A DNA stretch of 64,000 bases from Eledone cirrhosa (taxonomy: Eukaryota). The DNA lies in NCBI GenBank assembly GCA_964016885.1, contig OZ024758.1, positions 434,001-498,000 on the forward strand, given 5' to 3'. The notes beneath the pieces are model-generated. The model did not search any database. It was not told the DNA's origin and worked only from the letters and a program-made list of their open reading frames with translations. Of the stretch, positions 16,254 to 62,348 are shown one piece after another. Both the position numbers and the translations under genes were made by a program. Positions within the stretch are counted from its first letter, which is position 1. Each line of letters opens with the position of its first letter.

Positions 16254-16292
16254 TGAACCTGAAGATTGCGAAAGCATGAAAGTACTTGTTCA
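16254..16292 (+). ncRNA. Minimal type I hammerhead ribozyme (family C)
   Basis: TGAAC-CTGAAGA-T-TGC-GAAA-GCA-T-GAAA-GTAC-TT-GTTCA. Stem I is 5 bp, stem II has a GNRA loop, stem III is the palindrome AGTACT and the site is CUU. It sits in a ~195-bp insert (16217-16410) bounded by (TA)n. Confidence 0.75.
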
Positions 16293-16605
16293 ATTAACAC
16301 TTAACATTTAATATTCTATCATATTATTTCATTATAATACCATTATAAATTTTAAAGGATTGTAAATAAAACGAGTAAATCAGACAAAGTTGGAATTCCT
16401 TTTATTAATATATATATATATATATATATATATATATATATATATATATATATATATATATATATATATATATATACAGTGGCAACCGGCCAGGTTGCCC
16501 AATTGCAAGTGGGTACTAGGGAATCCACGGTACCATTGCAGGGGCCCACAGTAGCATTACAGGGCCCACTGTAGTATTTTAAGGGCCAATGCTTAGTTTT
16601 CAAAA

Positions 16606-17014
16606 AATAGCTGTAGTCTAAGAGAAAGAATAGAACGACATCACATCATTTTGTATTGAACATTTTGAAAGTTGGTTTATAAGTATGAATTTTCGTATGA
16701 TTTTCGTAGCTGTCTCAGTAGGTACTAGAGACGGTGGAGATCCTGGTCTTGGATTCAATCCTGGTCAAGAGGTACATGTAATCTTTTTCAGTTTTTATTT
16801 TACAACCAATAGAAAAAATAACTGAAAAGGTCTACCAGGAATCCTTCTCCCGACCAGGATCGAACTTCAGAACAAGATCACCACAGTCTACGATTCCTCC
16901 AACTAGGCCACCGAGACAGCTACAAAAGTATAAGGAAAATTGATAATTATAGAGCTACTTTCAATATCAAAGTTAAAAAGATGTGGCGTCGTTCATGGCT
17001 TTTCTACAGCTATT
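16606..17014. repeat. About 410-bp imperfect palindrome with two convergent tRNA-derived heads
   Basis: The arms pair along their length (ATAGCTGTAG/CTACAGCTAT, GTAGCTGTCTC/GAGACAGCTAC, ATCCTGGTC/GACCAGGAT). The right arm (minus strand) has A-box TGGCCTAGTTGG and B-box GTTCGATCC. Confidence 0.6.
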
Positions 17015-17194
17015 AGTAATATTTTGGGTCGCCTTGTCAACCTTCTGGCTCTTTGGTAACAACCTTATTATTCCTATGTGTGTTTAACTGTTGAATTGAT
17101 TTAATTTGATTATTTTAACAAACAAATAATATATATATCACTGATATCACTGCTCTACACCAACACCATATATATATATATATATATATATATA

Positions 17195-17470
17195 TGGTGT
17201 TGGTGTAGAGCAGTGATATCAGGGCCACTATCTTCTTGGGGATTCCATAAGCCTGTAACATCTTCATCAGGCAGTGACGGTCCACAGAATCAAAGGCCTT
17301 CCTAAAGTCAATAAAAACCATGACCGCAGAAAGGCACTTTGCTCTAGCTCCCTCTAATATTCTCCTCAGCATCAGGATGTGACTGGTGGTTGATCTTCCC
17401 TCTCTGAAGCCGTTCTGGTTGTCACTGAGCTTCTTCTCCATCTCGGGCTGGATCCTGTTAAGAATCATCC
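17195..17470 (-). mobile_element. RTE/RTE-X LINE, inverted 5' segment (RT N-terminal part)
   Basis: LNRIQPEMEKKLSDNQNGFREGRST..VFIDFRKAFDSV..LQAYGIPKKIVALISLLYTNT. Confidence 0.9.
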
Positions 17471-59355: not shown

Positions 59356-59402
59356 ATTCTACAGGACTAGAACTGTTTCATTCATTTGAAATCATCAGGA
59401 AT
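59356..59402 (-). ncRNA. Type I hammerhead ribozyme (family E) in an inverted pLTR fragment
   Basis: Minus strand ATTC-CTGATGA-T-TTC-AAAT-GAA-T-GAAA-CAG..CTG-TA-GAAT, homologous to 42694. The insert (59339-59433) is bounded by (TA)n. Confidence 0.7.
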
Positions 59403-59565
59403 GTGGTTACCTCCGATTCAACCCGGAATAACGTATATATATATATTTATATATATATATATATATTTATATATATATATTTTTATTTATATATATATAT
59501 ATGTATTTATATATGTATATATATGTATATGTATTTATATATGTATATATATATACATATATAAA

Positions 59566-60792
59566 TACATTGTGGGCTTATTTTTAATCAATTCGCTACA
59601 TAGGAAAATACCTGGTACTACCGGAGGTTTATATAGGGATGACATGCTTTTACTCATTAATAATAATAACCCTGAACTAAATAGAAAATGTAAACAAATT
59701 ACAAAATTTTTTAATTACTTTAACCTTAAAATAGAAATTGAGAACAACCATAGAATAGTCAATTTCCTAGATATAACATTAAATCTCAACACATGTCTCC
59801 ACTATCCTTTTCACAAGTTGAATGAGAGCTTAAACTATGTCAGCTTTAACTCTAACCACCCCAGATCTGTCAAAAACACTATAGTAAACTCAGTCCAAAA
59901 GCGTATCTCTAGGATCTCGTCGAATAGAAAGATTTTTGACGAAAAGGCCCAATACTATAATGATGCACTAGCTAGGGCAGGGTATGCTGATAAGATTGTG
60001 TACATAGATAATGATAAACAAACTAAACAAAGTAACAACTTTTTTAATTATGGCAACAACATTAACAACTATAATAGAAAGCATTACAATAATTCCAAAG
60101 GACAAAAAAGAAATAGAACTAGGAACATAATTTGGTTTGCCCCCCCTTTCTCACTAAACATTAAAACCCACATCGCTAAATTATTTTTCAAAGCTCTTGA
60201 TAATCGCTTCCCTAGAACACATAGGTACCACTCAATCTTCAATAGGCATACAATTAAATTAACCTATTCATCCACCAAAAATTTAGCACAAAATATTAAT
60301 AGAATAAATAATAGGAACTTAAAACCTACTGATAATAGCATAAATAATATACAAGTTAACAAATGTAACTGTAGAGATAGATCTAAATGTCCGTTAAATA
60401 ACAACTGCTTAGTTAAAAATATAGTATACAATTGTAATGTTAATACTGACTCTAATTCTTTTAACTACGTCGGTTCCACATCGACGGAATTTAAACTTCG
60501 CTATAATAACCACAAGAATTCTTTCACAGATCCAAATAAAAAATCTTCAACGGCACTATCAGGTGTACTCTGGCAACTTAAGCTAGATAACGTTAGATAT
60601 TCGACGGCTTGGAATATAGTCTCAAGAGGGATTCCTTTTAATTCATCCTCTGAGACATGTGACCTCTGCGCAGAGGAGATATTCTTTATACTAAAATCTA
60701 AAAATTCCCTTAACCTACGGACAAATTTATTCAGTTGTTGCAAACATAGATTAAACTCAACGTTTAAATATAAATTTAAATTTAAAATGTAG
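59566..60792 (+). CDS. 5'-truncated Penelope-like element ORF: RT C-terminal part, Cys-rich linker and GIY-YIG endonuclease
   Basis: GLYRDD (59632), VNFLDITL, NHPRS, IIWFAPPF, CNCRDRSKCPLNNNC, NIVY..YVGST..FKLRYNNH, STALS and CDLC..CCKH. The first 60 aa of the track ORF are microsatellite and pLTR, not protein. Confidence 0.92.
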   Translation, partial: YIVGLFLINSLHRKIPGTTGGLYRDDMLLLINNNNPELNRKCKQITKFFNYFNLKIEIENNHRIVNFLDITLNLNTCLHYPFHKLNESLNYVSFNSNHPRSVKNTIVNSVQKRISRISSNRKIFDEKAQYYNDALARAGYADKIVYIDNDKQTKQSNNFFNYGNNINNYNRKHYNNSKGQKRNRTRNIIWFAPPFSLNIKTHIAKLFFKALDNRFPRTHRYHSIFNRHTIKLTYSSTKNLAQNINRINNRNLKPTDNSINNIQVNKCNCRDRSKCPLNNNCLVKNIVYNCNVNTDSNSFNYVGSTSTEFKLRYNNHKNSFTDPNKKSSTALSGVLWQLKLDNVRYSTAWNIVSRGIPFNSSSETCDLCAEEIFFILKSKNSLNLRTNLFSCCKHRLNSTFKYKFKFKM

Positions 60793-62282
60793 TATATTTA
60801 GTTTGATTTATATTTATATGAGAACTAGCCGATAAATCTTTTGATTCCTAAATCTTTGATTCCCTCTTTTTACTGTTTATTTTATTGTATTTATTTTTAT
60901 TTTTATTTTTATTTTTATCTAAACATTCCTCATGAAAAATTAAGCTACCCTAAAAGCCGATGCTCCAAATTTTATGAATTAACCTTACACTTGATAAACT
61001 TATATATTAAATATAGGAACATATGTAGACATTATTGGACATCATAATCTTTTTTTTGCGATATTCCTTGCTAGGTGTGATTTGATAGATAATTTTTGGC
61101 TTTGTCTTGTAGTGAACTTGGCAATATATTGTCAATTAACCTTGAAGGGTTGTTCTTTGTGGTTTATTTTTTATTTTCATTTTTATTTTTATTTTTATTT
61201 TTATTTTTATTTTTATTCTTTTAGTATTGTAGTATTCTATAATATTTTTATATTTTTATTTTTTATTTTATTTTATTTTTATTTTTAATATTTTTATATG
61301 TAAAGTTTTAATACGTAATATTTTTAATACGTAGTATTTTTAATATGCAATATTTTTATTATGTAATATTCTTTCGTAATATTCTTTTTTAGTTTTCTAT
61401 TCTATATTTTTATATTTTTATATATTTTTACTTATTATCATTATTATTGTTATCTCTGCTTATAATATAATATATATTTTCGATTAGTATATTGAAATCT
61501 GCTCTCTATTTCTGCTTGATAGATAATCTTGTAGAGTAATCGCAAGAATAATAATACGCTCAAATGTTTATACCACATTGAGAATGTTTTCCGGTAACTT
61601 TGAATTTGCGGAGTGAATCAGTTGGATTCACATAGACATATGAATTTTTTTTAAAAACTAAACATAAGATAATGAATTTTCACGCATTGTGAATACTTGT
61701 TTCATTCAGGAATACTGATATTTACAATATAGTGTAAGTTTTATAAATACTAATACATTAAAACATAGGGTTTTCTACGCCTCGAATATGTCTGGCTATT
61801 TTTAAATTTTTCTCTCTCTATATCTCTCTATATCTCTCTATATCTCCCTTACATTAATACTTGAGCTAAATAAATAAATAAATAAATAAATAAATAAATA
61901 AATGCATCATTGATACACTTACTCAAAATGACCTCCCACTACCTAATTTTTCTATATCTATATTTATATATGTATCTATCTCTATTTCCTCTCTCTCTCT
62001 ATATATATATATATATATCTCTTTCGGTCTCTTTACATGAAGCTCTTCGCTTTATCTATTTTTCCATCTCTCTATTTTGTCCCATGCATTTCTTCTTTTT
62101 CTTCTTTTTTTTCTTCTTTTTCTTCCTTTTCTTCGTTTCGTCTTTCTTTCTTTCTTATTTCCCTCTTTTCTCTCTCTCTTTCTTTCTCTCTGTATTTTCA
62201 CTGCTAGAGTGAACCTCTTCAAATGAAGTTGATGTTTATTACGGTATGTCGAATATATTTATCTATAAAACTGTTTATATTG

Positions 62283-62348
62283 TATTTTGTCTGATGAAGG
62301 CATAGCATATTGTTAATATGATATCCCCGAAATATATATAATGAAATA
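62283..62348 (+). ncRNA. Type I hammerhead ribozyme (family D)
   Basis: TATTTTGT-CTGATGA-irregular stem II (GG..CATATT GTT AATATG..CC)-GAAA-TATATA-TA-ATGAAATA. The downstream tail is near-identical to that after 40951. Confidence 0.7.

Follow-up and report, generated by a model that had tools for sequence, protein, structure and literature searches.

A probable new permuted form of the hammerhead in Eledone cirrhosa DNA, with a counting rule on how Penelope-like elements integrate

The present study concerns a stretch of 64,000 nucleotides of Eledone cirrhosa DNA (GCA_964016885.1, contig OZ024758.1, positions 434,001 to 498,000), hereafter the window, in which an initial annotation had reported seven hammerhead ribozyme motifs. 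We consider it likely that the window brings together type I hammerheads in the repeats of Penelope-like elements (PLEs) inserted in (TA)n, and a permuted hammerhead on a tandem element that lacks an open reading frame (ORF) and probably borrows a Naiad-type enzyme. Read from the sequence, animal DNA probably holds a new permutation of the hammerhead, and the insertions yield a counting rule for PLE integration. The seven reported motifs are real; each is a minimal hammerhead of type I, placed in the terminal repeats of one of six PLE families (A to F) that target (TA)n, a known kind that occurs here at unusually high density. An eighth, permuted motif, carried by a further family (G), had been overlooked (coordinates in Table 1).

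In the family G motif, a UA upstream of GAAA sits between the strand of stem III and that of stem I, both of which find their pairing partners, and this order of the boxes is a non-circular permutation. The permuted order with three helices was matched once in the window and seven times in a sample of the 3.0-Gb genome (79 evenly spaced 10-kb stretches, 789.8 kb), against one match in 15 shuffled sets. A pattern of the linker plus two boxes had 15,944 genomic matches and none for the control. At least 10 of the 11 pairs in stems I and III are formed in 22 of 26 scored G loci, and the same holds for only 2 of 68 metagenome matches. Elsewhere, the full permuted fold was found in 2 of the 68 metagenome pattern matches and in none of 5 viral ones. 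The metagenome contigs with the full fold (L456:365-450 and L488:365-450) have a GUC site and are AT-rich; their similarity is 80% across 85 nt, with no other match between them. Divergent families of the permuted motif, with different stems, also occur in the genome at L113:~1950-2060(-), L271:~1850-1950(+), and L179:~1720-1820(-), the last of which looks decayed.

The helices of family G covary. We aligned 24 copies (the window copy, 18 of 30 pattern loci, and five others); of the pattern loci, nine were left out as near-duplicates or because they overlapped, two as fold-back junctions, and one for a deletion. Stem I was 96.5% paired with double changes in 6/6 pairs, helix P4 95.1% with double changes in 6/6, and stem III 93.3% with double changes in 3/5; none of these three helices was part of the search pattern. 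Helix II, formed with an upstream strand, was 93.8% paired and had double changes in one of its four pairs. The covariation score was reached by none of 500 shuffles, a control that the relatedness of the sequences inflates, and an unguided covariation scan ranked pairs of stem I and P4 at the top. Furthermore, 21 of the 24 copies have a U-H site precisely at the boundary of stems III and I, though it was not searched for. Thus, the block order of a type-SGC hammerhead (cut site, GAAA, CUGANGA) is present with covarying stems I and III, and the eighth motif is likely a non-circularly permuted hammerhead and a predicted ribozyme.

Several observations weigh against this assignment. The strand 3′ of CUGAUGA pairs with the strand before GAAA at only 38%, so the direct stem II of type-SGC is not formed; the pair 10.1-11.1 holds in only 71% of the G copies; and breaks at the predicted cut are not in excess (34, versus 30 and 26 at the neighboring positions, with 2,335 copies intact; the breakpoint class at -1 mixes point changes and junctions). 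A pairing of the strand after CUGAUGA with the arm of an upstream hairpin was considered and dropped. The absence of a direct stem II and of a breakpoint excess would suit a hammerhead-derived structured cis-signal, such as a binding site for the element protein, in which cleavage has been lost. The available text on a PLE studied in vitro, which inserts without ribozyme cleavage (PMC11167929), also speaks for such a signal. We regard it as possible but unlikely, given that a U-H site not searched for is kept between stems III and I, that related Naiad motifs read by eye retain a canonical stem II in the CSG order, and that tandem repeats of unit length fit cleavage and circularization.

A permuted hammerhead in family G would resemble the type-SGC and type-CSG hammerheads (Eckert et al. 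2023, PMC10085705) in its non-circular block order, its pseudoknotted stems I and III, its short linker between stems I and II, and its fourth helix. Non-circular hammerhead permutations have so far been reported almost only from metatranscriptomes. Since helix II of G takes its partner from an upstream strand, the opening of the chain would fall between A9 and helix II; breaks at this point are excluded by the six-order scheme of PMC10085705. The pseudoknot hammerhead of Zhan et al., in which helix II is replaced by a loop pseudoknot, is set apart from G by its description in the part of that work available. No type-CSG motif was found in the window or in the 790-kb sample.

The element that carries this motif is a young repeat (1,564 first-look candidates; best copies 98 to 99% identical). 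Elsewhere in the genome it forms ORF-less head-to-tail tandems with a spacing of 518 to 672 nt and one ribozyme motif per unit, and it has short (S) and tailed ends in (TA)n. It is likely a non-autonomous retrozyme. A retrozyme-like element, of the sort suggested in the initial annotation, thus exists in family G, the bearer of the eighth motif; for the other seven, retrozyme-like tandem arrays are not supported: all 11 pairs of same-family neighbors of families A to F in the genome sample were inverted head to head, and 0/11 lay on the same strand. The permuted ribozyme would cut tandem G transcripts into units of ~640 nt, and, in the manner of animal retrozymes, these units may be circularized and reverse-copied into tandems. 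The known animal non-LTR (long terminal repeat) retrozymes (PMC7229834; bioRxiv 10.64898/2026.07.22.740005) share with G the ORF-less tandem units, the single ribozyme in each, and the derivation from PLEs; in contrast, they carry type I hammerheads, whereas G carries the permuted fold and retains the S and L ends of PLEs. From the shared fold, family G probably borrows a Naiad-type enzyme. Against this, no autonomous partner of G was found in the genome with protein queries of the Hydra and Neptune types, and no contiguous ORF was seen in 60 loci.

Naiad PLEs are reported, in the available parts of the source, to lack canonical hammerheads; some are flagged there as "core" or "half core" without explanation (Craig et al. 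2021, PMC8557442). We read the published Naiad consensi (File S5 of that paper) by eye, covering part 24 as a whole and the surroundings of 60 of the 62 CTGATGA occurrences and of all 23 for CTGACGA. At least 14 of the 54 consensi have the G fold or its CSG permutation, a lower bound. Nine carry the family G fold, including both Octopus entries of part 24 and three from Acropora; the Acropora Naiads have GGCTCC/GGAGCC as helix II and TAGGAT/ATCCTA as stem I. Among the nine, one has a stem I of merely 2 bp and another an imperfect helix II. Five further consensi, including Naiad-2_Nbra and Naiad-3_Nbra, arrange these helices in the CSG order, and their stem II is canonical. As the G and CSG forms differ only in the point at which the chain is opened, the comparison supports G as a hammerhead. 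Family G thus shares with Naiads the five helices, which stand at the 3′ ends of several consensi, and the (TA)n targets, and differs in having no ORF. The Octopus Naiad motif has no exact match in the present genome.

On balance, we favor the view that Naiads carry active permuted hammerheads, namely CSG forms and a new form opened between A9 and helix II, and that the latter is present here in ~16,000 copies on retrozyme-like circular RNAs. No paper linking Naiads or retrotransposons to non-circular permuted hammerheads was found by title or abstract, subscription journals lying outside the coverage. If this view is true, animal DNA would have yielded its first ribozymes of this kind, and nearly all PLEs with an endonuclease would have hammerheads. 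A permuted motif would also explain why Naiads seemed free of ribozymes. Moreover, non-circular permutations would move from anonymous metatranscriptome contigs to animal chromosomes, and a topology outside the published scheme would be added.

The coordinates reported for the seven type I motifs were borne out by descriptor scans, sequence reading, and family alignment. A strict descriptor matched the motifs of families A, B, and D and that of the family E subfamily; the family E motif at 42694 was picked up once the core was relaxed. The family F motif was found with a second descriptor (four matches in the window; shuffle mean 0.075), and the family C motif escaped both and was confirmed by reading and family alignment. 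CUGANGA, GAAA, and UH in order, with a closing stem I, characterize families A to F, with the exception of A9C at 42694. This change, in a copy that the initial annotation had marked as core-mutant, is private to the window copy among 30 aligned copies, and family alignment shows stem II weakened in the window copy of family C. The half-motifs described for family A are present at 41986-42044 and 4185-4233, and a TA run stands at the 3′ end of each motif. Where at least five to six families had been proposed, we distinguish six, with 42694 and 59356 both in family E and with families C and F as sisters. Among the 52 motifs sampled genome-wide (see below), the first and last bases of stem II (10.1/11.1) are G·C in 11, U·U in 13, and A-U in 13, so a G10.1-C11.1 pair is not the rule; U·U at this position is a published PLE variant, listed for Hydra elements in the available text of Craig et al. 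2021 (PMC8557442).

That the motifs are chance matches in AT-rich repeats has a negligible probability. Only the simple composition of the region speaks for it, and it is refuted by the shuffle controls and covariation: dinucleotide shuffles gave 0.02 to 0.08 type I matches per window (100 shuffles at each of three block sizes), and the G-type control stands as given above. In the alignment of families C and F (seven sequences, partly selected by descriptor), the stems are 98.6% paired and three pairs of stem II have double changes. A C·C mismatch in the same stem II is retained in all seven sequences despite its covarying neighbors, and it may be a tertiary or protein contact. Rfam recovered none of the eight window motifs, neither at the gathering score nor at loose E-values. 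Since all these motifs are missed by Rfam, genome annotations undercount them.

The claim of a very large and diverse genomic population proved well founded. The 789.8-kb sample contained 52 type I motifs, spread over 28 stretches and falling into 17 clusters at 80% similarity, and its shuffled controls gave two matches in total in 15 sets. The extrapolated genome total is 197,000 (bootstrap 125,000 to 277,000), and the density of the window (four matches with the same descriptor) is typical of the genome. A TA run lies within 300 nt downstream of 94% of the sampled motifs, versus 27% of control positions. The presence of minimal hammerheads in the repeats of PLEs, for the most part singly, is already published (PMC4209133, in its available parts). 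The motifs described here share with them the type I topology, the short palindromic stem III, the location in the pseudo-long terminal repeat (pLTR), and the prevalence of single copies from truncated elements, and differ only in scale, with ~66 per Mb. Published counts, as far as the sources were available, are ~9,000 in Xenopus tropicalis, >6,000 in a coral, and 126,247 in axolotl, obtained with other descriptors, and the giant squid has 235 Rfam hammerhead matches. A term search of the available text of a 2026 paper on Octopus vulgaris repeats returned no mention of hammerheads.

The placement of the motifs in PLE pLTRs, as proposed initially, holds by linkage to an ORF for families A, B, C, E, and F, in which an ORF for reverse transcriptase (RT) with a GIY-YIG endonuclease (EN) at the C-terminus is contiguous with the motif. 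The anatomy of EN-bearing PLEs (a pLTR tandem, an inverted 5′-truncated arm, and a tail) is present. Dispersed copies counted as first-look candidates number 890 for A, 115 for B, 2374 for C, 936 for D, 3645 for E, and 711 for F. The family A motif belongs to a 4071-nt unit with a Neptune-type ORF (CX4CxxC linker). The family B motif lies in a 190-nt pLTR fragment (16218-16407), and an RT-EN ORF with a CX4CxxC linker stands directly upstream in 3 of 25 loci. A Hydra-like endonuclease is contiguous upstream of family C in 8 of 25 loci, and a Hydra-type ORF starts directly downstream of the family E motif in 2 of 25. The stems I at 59356 and 42694 differ by one compensatory pair. Family D weighs against a uniform assignment: no ORF link was found in 25 loci, though the anatomy of its ends matches that of the other families. 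In the family A locus L230 (1851-4475), the ORF starts in the pLTR just before the S end and contains an extended insert rich in asparagine, a feature also described for Penelope elements of rotifers.

The truncated family F element of the window (59566-62392) is 96 to 98% identical to a 4011-nt head-to-tail unit at C7:78.45 Mb, where a tandem holds four ribozymes 4011 nt apart and three open frames of 738 codons. Its protein has the Hydra-clade motif set, RWx (RWK-like), DKT, CxCX5C, CxxC, and CxH; the assignments to the Hydra and Neptune clades are by such protein motifs only. Argonauta proteins are among the best named relatives of the ORF (39% identity), and no relative was found among the viral contigs searched. 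The families share with the Hydra and Neptune clades (Craig et al. 2021, PMC8557442) the clade motifs, (TA)n targets, pLTR, inverted arm, and tail. In the available parts of that paper Hydra is described as a small clade, whereas the Hydra families here are young and abundant, and its 30- to 40-nt tails contrast with the 45 to 94 nt found here.

Each family has two fixed 3′ ends, the short S end and the tailed L end, which lie 45 to 94 nt apart. Exact (TA)n junctions occur in nearly equal numbers at the two ends: 10,742 (S) and 10,480 (L) in family A, and 1,368 and 1,470 in family F. Among the matches listed on C1, 105 of 110 divergent pairs combined one S with one L end (45/50 for A and 60/60 for F). 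The five other pairs, all of family A, comprise two true L/L insertions, one S/S pair with an intervening TA block, and two separate insertions. At the other end of 30 S loci we found an inverted L in 18 and an inverted S in none, the remaining 12 not being resolvable. Tail-only arms of 7 to 16 nt occur, and the arm lengths within an insertion are unrelated. These observations suggest that the S and L sites are used once each, on opposite strands.

Ends at the ribozyme cut site are rare. Of the family A copies, 29/30 read through it, and breakpoints are not enriched there in the type I families A and F. Among 46 arms of family F, 20 stop at a TCACTG that resembles an initiator, 85 to 96 nt upstream of the core, and one stops at the cut site. 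Many family B arms end at CAGTT, 41 nt upstream, in loci selected for their similarity to a copy with its start at this point. We read these pile-ups upstream of the core as transcription starts. In one family A copy (L186; 1/30), the end of the ORF is joined within 2 bases of the predicted cut, possibly by a template jump from cleaved RNA.

The head-to-head pairing of S and L, together with the rarity of ends at the cut site, fits double priming on uncleaved RNA. The element protein would cut both strands in (TA)n, two cDNAs would be primed at the two fixed internal RNA sites, S and L, and these would then be joined head to head. Many short copies may come from the 5′ repeat of the uncleaved transcript, running off at a start site upstream of the ribozyme. 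As such copies would run off at the start of uncleaved transcripts, most genomic type I motifs would be dead-on-arrival by-products. Three points weigh against this scheme: the two true L/L insertions; five of the nine window insertions of families A to F, which have one recognizable end only; and the breakpoint pile-up of family F, which could mark a pause or microhomology site instead of a transcription start.

An alternative is that inverted PLE insertions arise by a self-priming fold-back on an antisense template (Arkhipova 2013) and not from two target-primed cDNAs. It was proposed from palindromic junctions in rotifer elements (PMC3846280), and such junctions also occur in the present insertions. 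However, fold-back predicts neither one S and one L end per insertion, nor tail-only arms, nor unrelated arm lengths, and we therefore consider it rather improbable. For Poseidon of Anolis, the available text describes two internal RT start sites bounding the tail, both strands being cut and extended (Frangieh et al. 2024, PMC11167929). The two fixed tail-bounding sites are common to Poseidon and our families, and the same double-strand cutting and extension and ribozyme-independent insertion are reported there. In contrast to the near-strict one S plus one L per insertion seen here, no strand preference of the start sites was seen in that work. The term "twin priming" was absent from the PLE papers found in our literature search. 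Thousands of young insertions thus yield a rule on the scale of the genome, by which a short end is joined head to head with a tailed one and breaks do not pile up at the cut site; this rule makes the question of PLE integration directly testable. In read-through RNA, the head-to-head arms (11 inverted pairs in the sample) would also fold into long hairpins of near-perfect pairing, which may be substrates for adenosine-to-inosine (A-to-I) editing.

It had further been proposed that such motifs, if intronic, could cleave host pre-mRNA. A search against Pfam found no host exon among the 123 ORFs of the window, though introns can exceed the window in size. Two C2H2 matches were rejected as host exons; they resemble ends of long interspersed nuclear elements (LINEs); one match is repeated in 11 loci. 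Co-option of some motifs to cleave host pre-mRNA draws support from their number, as ~200,000 motifs should include many intronic ones, and from family E, which has a stem III of 4 bp and folds in silico as a monomeric hammerhead. We nevertheless hold it to be very unlikely: besides the lack of host exons in the window, 22 of the 52 sampled motifs adjoin their own antisense copy, which would sequester them, and the copies decay, intact cores being found in 20 of 30 family E copies.

Table 1. Hammerhead motifs and the elements that carry them, in window coordinates (UTR, untranslated region)
Feature	Position	Strand	Remarks
Family A mini-insertion	4066..4275	.	short arm broken inside the ribozyme + inverted tail
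Family B type I hammerhead	16254..16292	+	U·U at 10.1/11.1; palindromic stem III; predicted cut after 16287
Second family A mini-insertion	22418-22572		without ribozyme
Family C type I hammerhead	40891..40951	+	3′UTR/pLTR fragment ~39968-41089, whose terminus is the long, tailed L end
Family A type I hammerhead	41858..41900	-	insertion 41641-42167: a long and a short arm in head-to-head orientation
Family E type I hammerhead	42694..42744	+	private A9C; 4-bp stem III
Family G	42823..43432	+	ORF-less, pyrimidine-rich unit, ~640 nt
Permuted hammerhead-like motif (family G)	43324..43420	+	box order cut site, GAAA, CUGAUGA
Helix II	43346-49 with 43377-80	+
Helix P4	43351-56 with 43396-401	+
Stem III	43360-64 with 43385-89	+
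Stem I	43366-71 with 43403-08	+
Predicted cut and boxes	cut after 43365; GAAA 43382-85; CUGAUGA 43409-15	+
Family D type I hammerhead	48847..48924	+	older family; short end
Family E subfamily hammerhead	59356..59402	-	100-nt mini-insertion 59331-59432: short arm + inverted tail
Family F 5′-truncated Hydra-clade PLE	59566..62392	+	RT C-terminus, GIY-YIG endonuclease, 1.5-kb 3′UTR, pLTR
Family F type I hammerhead	62283..62348	+	predicted cut after 62340; 33/33 aligned copies identical

Other repeats surround these elements. A further TA-bounded repeat fragment lies at 41095-41481(-), with six homologues and a frame that resembles, by eye, the end of a GIY-YIG endonuclease. Rearranged fragments of a LINE reverse transcriptase (RVT_1) occupy both strands at 16623-18416, and a 64-nt minisatellite runs from 5622 to 6807 (18.5 copies, 97% matches). 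Near-perfect inverted repeats at 3862-3978, 31095-31292, and 49871-50340, some of them around TA runs, are probably fold-back insertions of other repeat families.

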